Assembly: GCA_963694535.1 (NCBI GenBank)
Contig: CAVODE010000001.1
Span: 26,134 to 90,133, forward strand
DNA: 64,000 bases
From: Dehalococcoidia bacterium
GTDB lineage: Bacteria > Chloroflexota > Dehalococcoidia > UBA2979
Reading direction: 5' to 3'
The position numbers and the translations under genes were made by a program. The stretch's first letter is position 1. The number at the start of each line of letters is the position of its first letter. The notes under the pieces are model-generated. The model was not told the DNA's origin and made no database searches. It saw nothing but the letters and a program-made list of their open reading frames with translations. Positions 31,672-56,676 of the stretch are shown here, in pieces.

Positions 31672-32211
31672 TTATGATTCTGAATTAATCGCATGATCAA
31701 TTAATTGCCGTAACTGTTTTTCACTGATTGTACCGGCATGCCTATCAAGGACCGTAGCTCCATCAGATGACACTGTCGATATTCTTGGGAATCCAAGAAT
31801 TCCAAGTCGTTTGGCGAGCGTATTGTCTTCCTTATTCGCAATATCAAGTATGACGAAATTCATTAAGGTTTGTGTTTCAAATCGTAAACCGTTCACGACG
31901 GCCCGTACGCTTTTGCAGCTGGGTCAGCCAACAGCAGAATTAAATACCAGTGTGGGTAGACCATTTTGTGGGATGTACGCTCCCGTTCGGTCGATTTCCG
32001 TGTCAGACATGGTGAAAGTTTTTGTAACTAGCACTGCTTCGGTTGTTGTAGTTACAACACCTTGTGTAGTCCCAACTTTCGGTGTTAGCGATTCGGAATT
32101 CTTCGTTGATTTTTCTATCGAACCTTCTTCGGTTTGACAGGATAGTGACAGGATTATCAATGTAAAAAGGACTACGGCAGATCGAGCGAAATGTATTTTT
32201 CTCTGATTCAC
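31672..32211 (-). CDS. Secreted (signal peptide, possibly lipoprotein) thioredoxin-fold SELENOPROTEIN. In-frame TGA at 31924..31926 is read as Sec in active site G-U-P-S-C-K. The ORF track splits it into 31924..32211 and 31672..31896.
   Basis: The two track ORFs are in the same frame, separated by a single TGA plus 9 sense codons. The joined translation ...LPTLVFNSAVG-U-PSCKSVRAVVNGLRF...FVILDIANKEDNTLAKRLGILGFPRISTVSSDGATVLDRHAGTISEKQLRQLIDHAINSES aligns to the thioredoxin fold (LVDFWAEW-CGPC-K ... GIRGIPTLLLFKNG...). The TGA occupies exactly the N-terminal active-site Cys position. The downstream piece has only a GTG start and no RBS of its own. Confidence 0.7.
31886..31904 (-). promoter_or_regulatory. 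Candidate SECIS hairpin downstream of the Sec-TGA of the thioredoxin-like selenoprotein
   Basis: mRNA GGGCCGU[CGUGA]ACGGUUU: a 7-bp stem (4 Watson-Crick, 3 G-U) with a 5-nt loop, starting 22 nt after the UGA. Found by eye; the fold was not computed. Confidence 0.3.
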
Positions 32212-34336: not shown

Positions 34337-35214
34337 TATCTATGAATAGATATCAGATGTTGATTCTCGCGATCGGAATTTTCGCCTGTAGTTGGGCTGG
34401 CCCATTAATTAGGCTGGCAGATGAGGCTTCTTTTCTTTATATTGCCACTGCACGCCTTGTAATTGCCGCGCCAATAATGATCGTAGTTTCACTTCTAGGG
34501 CCTAAAGATTCGTATAGGACTCTGAAAATCGGTGTGATTTGTTTAATGGTTTTATCTGGAATTGCTTTAGCAGCTCACTTTGCGTTTTGGGTTTCAAGCA
34601 TTTCTAAAACTTCGATTTTAGCCTCAGTCGCATTGGTTGCAATGAGTCCACTATTTGCCGCTTTAGGTGGCTGGATGTTTCTCGGCGAGCGACCGAACGC
34701 GAGAGTATTGAGTGGTATCCTAGTGAGCTTTTGCGGAGCATCTGCCCTGCTCATCTCCGATTTTAAAGATGTCGGTAGCTTGTCAGGGGACATCTATGCG
34801 TTCATCGGTGCCATACTTGCTTCGATTTATCTATTGATTGGGCGTTATGTCAGGCAGCGTGTAGAGATGTCAGTTTATGCAGCAGTCGTCTATTCGGTTG
34901 GAGCTATTGTTCTACTCATTACCTTCTTGAGTCGAGAAACTTTAACCTTTAATTATGAAGTAAATACGTATATCTTTGTTCTTTTACTCGCTCTTGTCCC
35001 ACAGTTAATCGGCCATAACGCGATAAATTATTCCTTGGGATTTGCGCCGGCTGCCATTGTTGCATTGGCGATACTTGGTGAACCTGTAGGATCATCTTTG
35101 ATAGCAGCGCTGTTTCTTGATGAAATTCCTTCAATTTTTGAGATTGTTGTCGGGGGAGTAATTCTATCGGGTGTTTATATTGGTGTCCGAGGCGGTGCGA
35201 TATCATCGAGCTAG
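34309..35214 (+). CDS. EamA/DMT family transporter
   Basis: 301 aa, 10 TM helices, two EamA-like repeats. Confidence 0.7.
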   Translation: MTWICLLCSLSMNRYQMLILAIGIFACSWAGPLIRLADEASFLYIATARLVIAAPIMIVVSLLGPKDSYRTLKIGVICLMVLSGIALAAHFAFWVSSISKTSILASVALVAMSPLFAALGGWMFLGERPNARVLSGILVSFCGASALLISDFKDVGSLSGDIYAFIGAILASIYLLIGRYVRQRVEMSVYAAVVYSVGAIVLLITFLSRETLTFNYEVNTYIFVLLLALVPQLIGHNAINYSLGFAPAAIVALAILGEPVGSSLIAALFLDEIPSIFEIVVGGVILSGVYIGVRGGAISSS

Positions 35215-36449
35215 CCAAGCTCGACTTCAGGCCTTTCTTCCCAGACAACCTGATTACTAATTAAATCTGCAAGCTGACCTTCATTCATTCCCAGCAGTTC
35301 AGATAAAACTTCGCGACTGTGCTCTCCCATATCAGGCGCCGTTCCTTTGATTCCACCAGGTGTCCGCGACATCTTTATTGGCGTATTTGCTAGAGGCGTG
35401 GGTCCAAAAGTTTTGTGTTCTATTTCAGGGAGCATCTCGCGGGCCGCGACCTGAGGCATAGCGGACGTTTCTGCGATGTTATTGAGTGGTCCGCAAGGGA
35501 TTCCGTACTTTTGTAAAGCGTTAACCCAGTCGGATGTATTTCTCTGTGCAAAAGCTAGATTCAGTAGTGGCTCGAGTTCACTGTGGTTCCGACTCCGAGC
35601 AGCAGCAGTTTCAAAACGTGGATCATCGATAAGTTCCGGGATATCAAGTTCGACACAGAGAAGTGCCCATTGATTTGAGATGCCCCAAGAGAGGGCAATG
35701 ACAATGTAGCCATCTTTTGTGGGGAATGCTTGGAAAGGCACAGCAGTAGGATGTCGAGTACCAATGCGTCCAGGGATTTCCTTCGTTATGTGATATCGCA
35801 TAAATTCATTTGTTTGCACCGCAATTTGACAGTCAAGCATTGAAATATCTATTAGTTGGCCTTCACCAGACTTATGACGCTCGTGTATTGCAGCTAAAAC
35901 TCCAACTGCGCAATATAGCCCAGCCGCTACGTCCCCGACAGAAAATCCAACTCGCGCTGGCTCTGAATCCTCATATCCCGTAATGGACATAACTCCGCCA
36001 GCCCCCTGCACAATTACGTCGAGGGCCGGCTTATCCGAAAGTGGGCCTGTCTGACCGTATCCGGATATGGCAGCGTATATGAGTCCTGGATTTAGGTCTT
36101 TGAGGTCGGCATACCCGAGACCAAGGCGGCTCATTGCACCAGGTGTAAAGTTTTCCACCACGACGTCAACTTCTTTCACAAGATCCTGGAAAATACTTTT
36201 TCCTGATTCAGTAGTGAGATCAACCGCGATCGATCTCTTGCCTCGATTTATAGAAAAGAAGTAGCCGGATTCTCCATCGATCATCGGCATAGTGGTACGA
36301 GCGACATCTCCGTAGGGAGGCCTCTCCAATTTGATAACATCTGCTCCGAGGTCACCCAGAGTCTGAGTACACATCGGCCCGGATAAAATCCAGGTGAGGT
36401 CAAGGATACGAATTCCTTTCAGCGGACCAGAAGTTGGTAATGCGGGCAA
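35211..36449 (-). CDS. CaiB/BaiF family-III CoA-transferase
   Basis: 412 aa. N-terminal GIRILDLTWILSGP...LGDLGADVIKLE signature of family-III CoA-transferases. Confidence 0.85.
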   Translation of the reverse strand: MPALPTSGPLKGIRILDLTWILSGPMCTQTLGDLGADVIKLERPPYGDVARTTMPMIDGESGYFFSINRGKRSIAVDLTTESGKSIFQDLVKEVDVVVENFTPGAMSRLGLGYADLKDLNPGLIYAAISGYGQTGPLSDKPALDVIVQGAGGVMSITGYEDSEPARVGFSVGDVAAGLYCAVGVLAAIHERHKSGEGQLIDISMLDCQIAVQTNEFMRYHITKEIPGRIGTRHPTAVPFQAFPTKDGYIVIALSWGISNQWALLCVELDIPELIDDPRFETAAARSRNHSELEPLLNLAFAQRNTSDWVNALQKYGIPCGPLNNIAETSAMPQVAAREMLPEIEHKTFGPTPLANTPIKMSRTPGGIKGTAPDMGEHSREVLSELLGMNEGQLADLISNQVVWEERPEVELG

Positions 36450-36471
36450 TGAGAAGGCCTTTCTGACTTGG

Positions 36472-37008
36472 TTAGTCGATTAGCGCTGTTAGCAATTGTT
36501 CGATAACAGAGTTAGCTCTTTGATGCATTTCTTCATCTGTTTGGTCTTGCATTGGGTGAGGTACAAAGACCCTGTTGACGTCAGGCATGCCCAATGAGGT
36601 CGATTGAGCTACCGCAGCATCGACAAAACCATCTGTGGCCACAAATACTGCGGGGATTCCATTATTTTCAAACCAAACTGTGTCGTGCACACTGCACGTT
36701 GTACAAGATCCTCAGTCAGCGACTGCCTCGATCACAAAGTTACACTCATTCAGTATTTGTCTTCTGAGTTCGTAAGGCGCAGGTTTAGCAAAAGTAGGCT
36801 TCATGTATCTTTGTATTTTTACATTTGGCATTTGATTACTAATCAGTATTTCGACCCGGTCTAAGAACTTATTTCCGCGAGGCTTAGAGATATCAAGGAG
36901 ACCAACGGTTCCAGTGATATGCTCAGGTCTTTTAGTTCTAGTTCGCTTGATTGGTTCTCTTTCGTCGGTCGGATCCAGAATTGTCGTGGGTAAATCTTGT
37001 GGTGACAT
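36472..37008 (-). CDS. UGSC-family SELENOPROTEIN. In-frame TGA at 36712..36714 is read as Sec in motif U-G-S-C. The ORF track splits it into 36712..37092 and 36472..36690.
   Basis: The two track ORFs share a frame and are separated by one TGA plus 6 sense codons. The joined translation is ...NECNFVIEAVAD-U-GSCTTCSVHDTVWFENNGIPAVFVATDGF... The Sec-Gly-Ser-Cys motif is the defining motif of the UGSC selenoprotein family reported from marine metagenomes (recalled, not searched). The downstream piece has only a GTG start and no RBS. Start assigned to ATG 37006..37008, preceded by AGAAGG 8 nt upstream; an alternative ATG at 37090..37092 overlaps the upstream gene. Confidence 0.75.
36684..36698 (-). 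promoter_or_regulatory. Candidate SECIS hairpin downstream of the UGSC Sec-TGA
   Basis: mRNA CGUGCA[GUG]UGCACG: a perfect 6-bp stem starting 16 nt after the UGA, or a 5-bp stem with AGUGU loop. An outer 3-bp extension UGU...ACA (36679..36705) is possible. Found by eye. Confidence 0.35.
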
Positions 37009-37030
37009 TCTACAAACCTTCTTTCTGACT

Positions 37031-38620
37031 TCAGTCATTAATTTTTCGGCTGGTTGGGATGGACCCAGTGGGTCCGCTTGCCCATCCTTCAAGTACGGCC
37101 GAAAACTTACCGGCTTCTGCTCCAGCCACCATTATATGGATATTTTCGTTGCTGCGAAATTTAGGGATCATTTTATTTAGTTCTTCTTCGGACGCATTAG
37201 CAAATTGGTTGGGATCTAGTCCAGCTCCTATTTCTTCATTTCTTAACAGCGATCTCACAGATCGTTGCGTAATTTTCTGGATTCGGTCTCTAATTTGTTC
37301 TTTTGACCAACCATCCTCCCAGATTGTGGCCACATGTTCTGGACATAGTACGAGCATCGAATCACCATAATTGTGAGAGTTAGGATGATGGTTGGCTTCC
37401 ATTCGAACACCGAGGGAGCCTACTAATGATTTAGCGGTTCTCGACGTTTGATCGATTGCCACTCCGATACCGGTCATTGCGAAAGCAGTCACTACCGATT
37501 CATCTTTATTGAAGCCTCGTTCCACGTGGAGAGGATCCCATGGACTGATTTCTTCCCACTCCGCAAAGCAGGTTGAATACCGCATAGGCGATCCCTGAGT
37601 AGATCGTTCAGTCTCGCCTGGCCTTTGGCCACCGACATTTCTGAGTATCAGTCTCACCGCACGCCCGATTGCAGCGTTAGCTCTGTTCCCTTGGCCTAGA
37701 GCGTTCAGTCCCATATTCATTCCGATTCGTTGTCGAATCGGCCCATTGACCACCAGCACAGGAGTGGCACCCATAGTGGTAGCGCCGACCCCGTGTGCAT
37801 TGAATTCTTCATTACACACAGCTTCTACCGCTGCAATAACTACTGGGAGATATTCAGGTAGGCAGCCTGCCATTACCGAATTTATTGCTATTTTTTCAAC
37901 GGTCACCGGAGCCAAGTTAGGAGGCACAATTGCCACAGTATCTTGTGAATCTCTTTTTGTTCCATCTAGCATTCGAATGACACGCTCAGGGGTGGGGGGG
38001 ATGACAGGCAGTCCATCGGTCAGGCCTTGTTGATACATAAATTCATGGACATCGTCGTGAAGTGCAACTTCGACCCTGCGCGCCCTGATTGGCGATCCTT
38101 CTGACTCGGCTTTCAGTCGTTCAAAAATCCCAGGCTCCAGAGATTTTGAGCCACATCCAGGTCTTGATTCAGGATATATATCCCAGTCAATTTCCGGCAT
38201 AGTACTTTTATTTATCTTGGCTAAGTCCTCGAATAAACTTTTCCAGTCGTCTCGTCCAAAACCCACAAATGTGCGAGTCGGAGTTCCATCAGGAGTTGCT
38301 AGGACTAAAGTGGGGACAGTTTCGATTTCATATGCGTACGAGGTATTTAGCGTGGACTCATCCAGAAAAGGTAGTGTCATCGAATATTCCTCTGTGAGGA
38401 CCAGGTCATCATCTCCATTTTGCGCCAACGCAACGATATCGACTCCGTCACTGAATTCTTCGAATGCCTTTTGCAGTAGGGGCATGGAAATTCTTGTTGT
38501 TGGACAATCTTCCTTAACAAAACAAAGCAGGGTTGGCCTTCCCGAAGGAAAGGAGTAAGCATTTTGTGTTCTCGTAGCACCAGCCGTTGGCAAAGAAAAT
38601 GAAGGCAGTTGGGTGGGCAT
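37031..38620 (-). CDS. Fusion protein: N-terminal thioredoxin-fold (AhpC/TSA-like, single Cys in DCPTT) plus ~380-aa C-terminal domain of unknown function
   Basis: 529 aa. The N-terminal ~140 aa resembles a peroxiredoxin/TlpA-like fold (LLCFVKEDCPTT...VPTLVLATPDG). The C-terminal domain matches nothing I can name. Translationally coupled to the UGSC selenoprotein gene downstream. Confidence 0.5.
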   Translation of the reverse strand: MPTQLPSFSLPTAGATRTQNAYSFPSGRPTLLCFVKEDCPTTRISMPLLQKAFEEFSDGVDIVALAQNGDDDLVLTEEYSMTLPFLDESTLNTSYAYEIETVPTLVLATPDGTPTRTFVGFGRDDWKSLFEDLAKINKSTMPEIDWDIYPESRPGCGSKSLEPGIFERLKAESEGSPIRARRVEVALHDDVHEFMYQQGLTDGLPVIPPTPERVIRMLDGTKRDSQDTVAIVPPNLAPVTVEKIAINSVMAGCLPEYLPVVIAAVEAVCNEEFNAHGVGATTMGATPVLVVNGPIRQRIGMNMGLNALGQGNRANAAIGRAVRLILRNVGGQRPGETERSTQGSPMRYSTCFAEWEEISPWDPLHVERGFNKDESVVTAFAMTGIGVAIDQTSRTAKSLVGSLGVRMEANHHPNSHNYGDSMLVLCPEHVATIWEDGWSKEQIRDRIQKITQRSVRSLLRNEEIGAGLDPNQFANASEEELNKMIPKFRSNENIHIMVAGAEAGKFSAVLEGWASGPTGSIPTSRKIND

Positions 38621-38639: not shown

Positions 38640-39020
38640 TTAGTACAGCTCTAGTGTTGAAGTATCTATATTAAAATATCCTATCGCGATTATAAACAAA
38701 ATTAGCAATGCGACAAGTCTTTTCTTGCCGGACTTGGTTCCATGTTTTTGCATAATTCTTTTCACAGAACGAACATCACTTTTTCCTAGAGCAAACCATT
38801 CCCCATGAATCCGCATTTCCGCGCAATATCTATGAAGATATCGCTCGAGTTCTTTAGGATTTTTCGTCTTAGTGATTTTCACTAACCTTAATAACACTGG
38901 CGATCCAGTTTGCAAGTTCGAAAAGCGTGTTTTGGGATTAATCGTTCGACCAATTTTAAAGAGATCCTTGCCGGCTTCTCTTGGTCCTTGAATAAGATAA
39001 ACGTAACCGTGTTGGGCCAT
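38640..39020 (-). CDS. T5orf172/MUG113 (GIY-YIG-like) domain protein with C-terminal TM helix
   Basis: GYVYLIQ...FKIGRT...P..R...L...GEWF pattern of the T5orf172 family. Hydrophobic C-terminal tail LVALLILFIIAIGYF. First gene of the operon. Confidence 0.5.
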   Translation of the reverse strand: MAQHGYVYLIQGPREAGKDLFKIGRTINPKTRFSNLQTGSPVLLRLVKITKTKNPKELERYLHRYCAEMRIHGEWFALGKSDVRSVKRIMQKHGTKSGKKRLVALLILFIIAIGYFNIDTSTLELY

Positions 39021-56204: not shown

Positions 56205-56335
56205 TGCCTACCTACTTACTGAATACTCATATATTTCTAATCTTAGTATCTTTAGTCTTTCGCTGAAATAGAAGCAATTTCTTGAAGCCAGATTAGACTT
56301 TCTTGTAGTATAGTTAAAACATCAGTAGAAAATTC

Positions 56336-56425
56336 CCGCTGGGGGGGCCATTACTGGCTGAGATTCTTGTTAATCAAGGACAACCCCAAAAACCTGAACT
56401 CGGTAATTCGAGCGGAGGAAAGCGG
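56336..56425 (+). ncRNA. TPP (THI-box) riboswitch
   Basis: P1 CCGCU...AGCGG enclosing GGGGGGCC...GGCUGAGA...ACCCC...ACCUGAAC...GGUAAUUCGAGCGGAGGAAAG. This matches the conserved THI-element cores (GGGGUGCC / GCUGAGA / ACCUGAUC / GGAUAAUGCCAGCGUAGGGAAG). It sits in the 5' leader of an NMT1/THI5-type ABC importer operon. A possible -10 TATAGT lies at 56309..56314, and a weak stem-loop plus CCTTTTG at 56446..56468 may act as expression platform. Confidence 0.8.
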
Positions 56426-56676
56426 CAAGACAGTTCACTCGAAATTAGAGTGCCTTTTGATCTAGCCACGAACCTCACAACGAAAATAACCGTCTCAGAA
56501 TCTGCTTCTCTATCGGGGGTAAATGCGGAGAGGTTATTTGGAATGATCAGAGAAACTCTATCATCAGGTATAAATTCAATGCGTGCTCACATAAAAGGCG
56601 CTCATATCGTGCGTGATATGAATTCTCTTGCAAATAAATTCAGATAGACCAATAGAAATAATAAGTAAGCAGTGGT

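Follow-up and report, generated by a model that had tools for sequence, protein, structure and literature searches.

The stretch of DNA analyzed here (the window) comprises 64,000 nucleotides from a marine, SAR202-like Dehalococcoidia bacterium (GenBank assembly GCA_963694535.1, contig CAVODE010000001.1, positions 26,134 to 90,133). As judged from its sequence, positions 36472-37008 of the minus strand are one gene, encoding a UGSC-family selenoprotein in which UGA codon 99 is decoded as selenocysteine (Sec) via a hairpin. The best explanation of the comparative data, which we favor with moderate confidence, is that this protein acts as the redox-active selenol subunit of a reductase that is linked to thioredoxin and made up of two proteins, the product of the adjacent gene being its partner.

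A first-pass annotation of this DNA had joined two minus-strand open reading frames (ORFs), 36712..37092 and 36472..36690, into one gene split by TGA. Read-through translation bore this out. Both ORFs lie in one frame and the TGA at 36712-36714 is the sole interruption (...NFVIEAVAD-U-GSCTTCSVHDTVWF...; over a longer span, ...NECNFVIEAVAD-U-GSCTTCSVHDTVWFENNGIP...). This Sec codon (36712..36714, minus strand, residue 99) opens the sequence D-U-G-S-C-T-T-C-S-V-H-D, a UxxCxxC motif. Sense codons do follow the TGA before the GTG at 36690, but they number seven (GSCTTCS) rather than the six claimed. As also annotated, this GTG is the only start of the downstream ORF; it lies inside the conserved motif and lacks a ribosome-binding site. 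The upstream edge at 37092 had to be revised: the TTG found there overlaps the upstream gene, and the likely start is instead the ATG at 37006-37008 (MSPQDL...), 22 nt past the TGA stop (37031-37033) of that gene. We took this ATG as the start because homologue P0001 begins at the matching point and a Shine-Dalgarno-like stretch is nearby (AGAAAGAAGG, 37017..37026, minus strand, as read from the sequence, ending 8 nt upstream of the ATG). The gene so defined (36472..37008, minus strand) has 178 codons and a TAA stop at 36472-36474, and its product consists of 98 residues, U at position 99 and a further 79 residues, 178 in all. Gene callers had been expected to split the gene, and public calls for the same contig, which occurs in several marine metagenomes, indeed give ORFs of 98 and 72 aa. 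Each of these called ORFs matches PF24696.

For scoring, U in the joined protein was replaced by C. The 178-aa protein reached 163.7 bits with the NCBIfam equivalog model NF041046, 'UGSC family (seleno)protein' (cut-off 125), and 166.2 bits with Pfam PF24696 (cut-off 25). It thus exceeds both curated cut-offs, in agreement with the family assignment made earlier, and all 25 aligned relatives match the UGSC models too. The U-G-S-C motif, a length of ~175 aa, the dominance of Sec forms and a marine or aquatic distribution are common to the family and the window protein. We found no essential difference between them, and the window gene is a member.

A protein search for UGSC returned 212 relatives, nearly all of them ~98-aa fragments ending in ...EALAD and truncated at the Sec codon. 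The few full-length relatives carry Cys at the Sec column (P0003 and P0004) or, in P0002, W, the latter resulting from gene calling with an alternative code. Cys was also aligned with the TGA column in RefSeq plasmid homologues from Roseovarius and Natrinema, so that Cys orthologs of the kind sought after the first-pass annotation do exist. A genome scan with one genome per species yielded 595 relatives, the best 80 of which were taken as loci for comparison. These 80 loci are from Dehalococcoidia, Tepidiformaceae, Gammaproteobacteria/Pseudomonadales, Sulfitobacter, Deltaproteobacteria and Binataceae; the two closest metagenome-assembled genomes (MAGs) show 98% and 94% identity, and the cultured Sulfitobacter brevis DSM 11443 has the partner gene as well as the TGA form. 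When the best 80 loci were combined with six contigs of the same organism, TGA occupied the Sec column in 86 of 86, representing at least five lineages, within D-U-GSCTTCS[VLM]HD. Orthologs that ended or were frameshifted at the TGA would have argued against a single gene, but all 86 read on in frame and none is frameshifted. The 79 residues past the TGA are conserved in frame at ~60-70% amino-acid identity across phyla, and H108 and D109 are invariant within the Sec subfamily. As conservation of the TGA at every locus together with a conserved in-frame C-terminal half is far beyond chance, we conclude that the two ORFs constitute a single selenoprotein gene.

The candidate Sec insertion sequence (SECIS) is the hairpin CGUGCA-GUG-UGCACG at 36684..36698 on the minus strand (5' arm, 36693-36698; loop, 36690-36692; 3' arm, 36684-36689). 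Its stem of 6 bp is perfect, as had been noted, and starts 13 nt past the A of the UGA; the distance of 16 nt given earlier holds when counted from the U. Among 76 distinct homologous sequences, synonymous entropy was 0-0.1 bit at codons +5 to +8 (ACG TGC AGT GTG) and 0.95-1.86 bit at the Ser, Cys and Thr codons +2 to +4. The bases frozen at synonymous sites are exactly those of the hairpin, which is also the RNAalifold consensus, and such freezing over the hairpin codons is as expected of a SECIS. Pairing was retained in 348 of 348 cells (58 sequences); one pair occurs as GC in 50 sequences, GU in 7 and AU in 1, and there is one double change from G-C to A-U. As covariation alone was not significant (73/500), the argument for a SECIS rests on the synonymous-site constraint.

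The gene directly upstream of the UGSC gene (37031..38620, minus strand) encodes a partner protein of 529 aa that consists of a thioredoxin domain, a linker and an unannotated C-terminal domain. By tblastn, most of the 80 loci, in different phyla, have this partner immediately ahead of UGSC, and neighborhood clustering of the 80 loci revealed no other conserved neighbor. Residues 1-137 form a TlpA/ResA-like thioredoxin domain with the active site CPTT (codons 39-42; 38495-38506, minus strand), and this domain also gives a weak AhpC/TSA match. The linker is flexible, was modeled with low confidence and contains an invariant RPGCGS (C156). The C-terminal domain (residues ~205-529; ~325 aa, or ~380 aa with the linker) was modeled confidently and contains the invariant C253; this domain has no Pfam, NCBIfam or PDB sequence match, and no structural neighbor of the partner model ranks above the thioredoxin matches. 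C39, C156 and C253 are all invariant, and 31 of 37 relatives have CPTC as the active site. One candidate role for the RPGCGS segment, a self-processing or pyruvoyl site, was set aside because stand-alone partner proteins lack the segment.

Distant Cys-type homologues are paired in the same manner. On a Roseovarius sp. THAF8 plasmid the gene order is LysR, a 371-aa 'hypothetical protein', Cys-type UGSC and trxB, with a CaiB-type CoA-transferase and a TRAP (tripartite ATP-independent periplasmic) transporter on the opposite strand. The 371-aa protein is a clear homologue of the partner C-terminal domain (hhalign E 1.8e-60). On a Natrinema plasmid, the gene after Cys-type UGSC encodes a 354-aa hypothetical protein with the conserved partner motifs. 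These distant pairings indicate that the association of UGSC with its partner is old, and it carries a thioredoxin link, either fused to the partner or from a neighboring gene. The two MAGs closest to the window also contain a second UGSC-plus-partner pair on another contig (JAQWLS010000047 and JAPYRK010000014; 72-74% identity), which implies that the module was duplicated within a genome.

The fold of UGSC was predicted from an AlphaFold2 model of the Cys homologue P0003 (pLDDT 89.6, pTM 0.84). The model contains five beta-alpha units, with the U/C residue at the start of helix 3, and from it we infer that the UGSC protein is a small cytoplasmic (beta-alpha)5 Rossmann-like domain. The predicted fold thus places UGSC outside the thioredoxin fold. 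U99-x-x-C102 at the start of predicted helix 3 has the redox-pair spacing of thioredoxin-type oxidoreductases. The thioredoxin-fold UxxC/CxxU selenoproteins of marine metagenomes (thioredoxin-, peroxiredoxin- and DsbA-like) likewise have a redox-type UxxC motif at a helix N-terminus and share the presumed selenenylsulfide chemistry, recycled by thiol reductants. Structural neighbors of the P0003 model include Rossmann/flavodoxin-like cofactor-binding domains, e.g. B12-binding proteins and the methyl-coenzyme M reductase (MCR)-activation proteins Mmp7 and McrC, and PDB sequence searches with UGSC gave no match.

These features are consistent with the following mechanism. Helix 3 would carry Sec99 at its N-terminus and Cys102 and Cys105 on the turns that follow, a placement that would suit a nucleophilic selenolate whose resolution to a selenenylsulfide is followed by onward relay. 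After its attack on the substrate, Sec99 would be left in a selenenylsulfide with Cys102 that may be relayed to Cys105. The C-terminal domain of the partner, rich in invariant polar residues, is likely the substrate-binding or catalytic subunit, and binding or activation of the substrate would fall to its ~325 aa. Re-reduction of the selenenylsulfide would then be the task of the TlpA-like thioredoxin domain fused within the partner, while in other lineages a neighboring TrxB/thioredoxin system would re-reduce oxidized UGSC. Such recycling would be analogous to the feeding of glycine and proline reductases by thioredoxin. CoA-transferases, acyl-CoA dehydrogenases and short-chain dehydrogenases/reductases occur in the variable gene context, which weakly suggests that the substrate is a small organic acid or an acyl-CoA-linked compound.

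The analogy to glycine and proline reductases extends to the Sec region itself. Weak matches to the NCBIfam hidden Markov models for GrdF and GrdB were obtained in 12 and 11 of 25 UGSC members, respectively, in each case at the Sec region (best E 4e-4). On the GrdF/GrdB-type models the window protein scored 16.4 and 17.5 bits against cut-offs of 602 and 800, over profile positions ~333-424 only, and it had no match to PF07355 at E <= 1. All sequence comparisons with GrdB used retrieved GrdB-family proteins. The Sec region of the retrieved proteins reads ...TST-U-GTCTRCGATMVKEIERAGIPVV...IPHPLG.... When residues 85-178 of UGSC were aligned to residues 336-430 of GrdB with hhalign (E 4e-4, probability 35%, 91 columns), U fell on U and both Cys residues, GIPxV and PHP were matched. 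In this alignment ADCGSCTTC stands opposite STWGTCTRC, in which W is TGA read as Trp (entries P0241-P0333). The UxxCxxC motif of GrdB has been described (PMC13188914).

UGSC therefore has in common with GrdB, GrdF, GrdH and PrdB (PF07355, TIGR01917, NF040794) the succession of U-G-[ST]-C-T-x-C, a helix, a GIPxV strand and a [IV]PHP[LI] strand. As in the GrdB family, its Sec is part of a UxxCxxC motif in a C-terminal module, but neither the whole-protein score nor the ~435-aa architecture of that family is found: UGSC has ~175 aa and lacks the ~330-aa N-terminal part of GrdB. The hosts differ as well, in that UGSC occurs in aerobic marine heterotrophs and haloarchaea, whereas GrdB-type proteins occur in amino-acid-fermenting anaerobes. 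A thioredoxin link is known in both cases: trxB adjoins UGSC in Roseovarius, and grd operons are tied to thioredoxin and thioredoxin reductase, with thioredoxin feeding glycine and proline reductases. No GrdA, GrdE/PrdA (pyruvoyl proprotein) or GrdC/D was present among the annotated neighbors in the window and contig or among the neighbor clusters of the 80 loci, and the literature searched contains no mention of a UGSC-GrdB link. From these comparisons we infer that the Sec module of UGSC is related, as a stand-alone unit, to the C-terminal module that bears Sec in the glycine/sarcosine/betaine reductase B proteins (GrdB/GrdF).

A bolder extension, which we advance tentatively and think rather less probable than the reductase subunit role itself, is that UGSC and its partner form an unrecognized two-component thioredoxin-dependent selenoenzyme whose Sec module is an offshoot of the glycine/proline reductase B proteins. 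If this were true, SAR202, roseobacters and Gammaproteobacteria would possess a system for reductive bond cleavage or reduction, with a Cys version in haloarchaea, and Stickland-type selenium chemistry would operate within oxic ocean metabolism.

Several points weigh against the assignment of UGSC as the selenol subunit of a thioredoxin-linked reductase, or against parts of it. None of the Sec machinery (selA, selB, selD and tRNA-Sec) was found in the 64-kb window, to which the search was confined; the window has no tRNA genes, and motif greps for SelB and SelD were negative. The Cys-form UGSC gene L087 (1228-1262; TGT for TGA) has the identical CGUGCA-GUG-UGCACG hairpin, so that this control with the Cys form, for which one gene was read, did not discriminate; L087 may be a recent Sec-to-Cys conversion with a fossil SECIS. 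The fold comes from a model of P0003, which is 52% identical, and not from one of the window protein. In the window lineage and its closest relatives the active site of the partner is CPTT, which makes its thioredoxin-like domain monothiol here and complicates a simple dithiol relay; the resolving thiol could be supplied by the invariant C156 of the RPGCGS linker. The role likely for the partner C-terminal domain is purely deduced, and identification of this domain as the missing N-terminal part of GrdB was tried and rejected (hhalign E 0.61). Similarity to GrdB is itself weak (hhalign probability 35%; 16-17 bits versus cut-offs of 600-800) and limited to ~90 residues. At about 14 of the 80 loci the partner is missing within 6 kb, and those of them that were checked have unrelated neighbors. 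Finally, reviews up to 2026 report no biochemical evidence for any member of the UGSC family.

The motif and its surroundings could also be interpreted without redox catalysis by Sec. U-x-x-C-x-x-C and the nearby His and Asp might be ligands of a metal or metalloid (Fe-S, Zn or a soft metal), in which case UGSC would serve the partner as a subunit for metal binding or electron transfer. Spacing of the CxxCxxC type is typical of cluster ligands, Cys-type relatives possess extra cysteines (DCGSCCSCC in Roseovarius), H108 and D109 do not vary in the Sec subfamily, and the structural neighbors include Rossmann/flavodoxin-like domains that bind cofactors, as in the B12-binding proteins, Mmp7 and McrC. 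However, the spacing of the third Cys varies (CxxCxxxC in Natrinema) and the His is replaced outside the subfamily, where RD or YD is found. A strong bias towards Sec rather than Cys, and an association with thioredoxin domains or TrxB, are features more typical of redox catalysis, and the homologous motif of GrdB is regarded as redox or substrate-handling. We therefore consider a metal site improbable.

We attach a similarly low probability to the possibility that UGSC acts on its own as a general antioxidant or thiol-disulfide oxidoreductase, is reduced by cellular thioredoxin and is adjacent to the 529-aa protein without forming a dedicated two-subunit enzyme with it. Reviews do group UGSC with the peroxiredoxin-, thioredoxin- and glutaredoxin-like redox selenoproteins, and the loci without a nearby partner, as well as the AhpC/TSA similarity of the partner N-terminal domain, are compatible with such a role. 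On the other hand, the predicted fold is not that of thioredoxin, and UGSC and the partner domain remain neighbors in hosts as distant as Chloroflexota and haloarchaea, whichever gene comes first and whether or not a thioredoxin domain is fused to the partner domain. This pattern is hard to explain without functional coupling, and the Global Ocean Sampling (GOS) study reports UGSC fused to an unknown domain.

Two further readings dispense with Sec altogether, and both are contradicted by the comparative sequence data. A true stop at the TGA, leaving a pseudogene or two small genes, would agree with the two ORFs produced by automatic gene calling, with the unremarkable folding energy of 36640-36720 as a whole (z +1.1) and with the lack of any Rfam SECIS match in the window at gathering and permissive thresholds. 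This reading is very improbable given the universal TGA, the intact and conserved 79-residue continuation, the full-length Cys homologues, the single hidden Markov model that spans both halves and a downstream ORF that has just a GTG inside the conserved motif. Still less credible is reassignment of TGA to Trp or Gly, giving a selenium-free protein: although W stands at the Sec column in P0002 and in the GrdB entries mentioned above, these come from alternative-code gene callers, the same TGA is found in standard-code phyla including the cultured Sulfitobacter, TGA is the ordinary stop of 11 of 47 long ORFs in the window (including the gene directly upstream of UGSC), as expected of the standard genetic code without reassignment, and just two in-frame TGAs of the window are flanked on each side by supported coding sequence, both of them opening a UxxC motif.

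The assignment as a UGSC selenoprotein is correct but of a known kind, since the family is abundant, described and represented by curated models. The first-pass annotation had called the gene unannotated. This description is apt for Prodigal-type gene calls but not otherwise, as there are curated NCBIfam and Pfam models and members are labeled 'UGSC family (seleno)protein' by RefSeq and its Prokaryotic Genome Annotation Pipeline. The family has been known since the mid-2000s, and the UGSC-containing protein is named in the marine metagenome surveys of Zhang and Gladyshev. It was among the most abundant selenoprotein families of the GOS dataset, with 255 Sec and 21 Cys sequences (PMC2398784); the same 2008 paper considered a thioredoxin fold 'likely' and reported fusions to a domain termed 'Unknown_1' (PMC2398784). 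Reviews from 2022 and 2026 describe the function as uncharacterized, and searches of the literature on SAR202 and selenocysteine found nothing useful. The identity of the gene is thus already known in kind, and its interest rests on the functional leads. What is added for the family is a predicted fold that is Rossmann-like rather than thioredoxin-like, extension of the motif to UxxCxxC and a conserved partner gene. The two-gene module, the GrdB-type Sec module and the cultured Sulfitobacter brevis DSM 11443 make the question of UGSC function, now about twenty years old, easier to test. The window gene is also an example of how selenoprotein genes continue to be split by Prodigal-type annotation.

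The other supported in-frame TGA (31924-31926) belongs to a second selenoprotein gene, thioredoxin-like, at 31672-32211 on the minus strand. Read-through gives ...LVFNSAVG-U-PSC-K..., with Sec at the thioredoxin active-site position (VG-U-PS-C). The joined protein exceeds the cut-offs of Pfam Thioredoxin and Thioredoxin_2 and has a lipoprotein- or signal-like N-terminus. Public calls split this gene into ORFs of 95 and 63 aa, each without a Pfam match. Three relatives (L007, L008 and L009; 87%, 85% and 65% identity) retain the TGA as well as the frame downstream of it, and a hairpin, GUCGUGAA-CGG-UUUACGAU, is present 24 nt past the UGA. The presence of this second gene is a further argument for the identity of the UGSC gene as a selenoprotein gene.

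Downstream of the UGSC gene, at a distance of 22 nt, is a family III (CaiB/BaiF-type) CoA-transferase gene (35211..36449, minus strand; PF02515, 430 bits), whose product falls below every NCBIfam equivalog cut-off. It adjoins UGSC only in the closest relatives (L001-L009). It is probably co-transcribed with UGSC here and is not a conserved part of the module. The 'redox/CoA-transferase operon' proposed earlier thus stands with respect to the thioredoxin-like 529-aa neighbor but not with respect to the CoA-transferase as a conserved member. The string AGTCAGAAAG is common to both 22-nt spacers, ahead of the start codons (37021-37030 and 36459-36468, minus strand), and its presence in the partner-UGSC and UGSC-CoA-transferase spacers probably reflects a shared ribosome-binding context. 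Promoter and terminator scans gave chance-level results only.

Three minor observations concern other genes and elements. A T5orf172/MUG113 (GIY-YIG-like) gene (38640-39020, minus strand) precedes the partner gene by 19 nt in the same orientation and is present in all contigs of the same organism; it is an unusual neighbor for a metabolic operon. A gene for a thioredoxin-tetratricopeptide repeat protein (YbbN/CnoX-like), and thus one more neighbor of thioredoxin type, is found 1-3 kb upstream of UGSC in some of the Dehalococcoidia loci, namely in L065 (4286-5320) and in a cluster of 12 loci that includes L062 (2357-3472). The sole Rfam match in the window is a thiamine pyrophosphate riboswitch (RF00059) at 56331-56437 on the plus strand, with 68.8 bits against a gathering threshold of 54.3.

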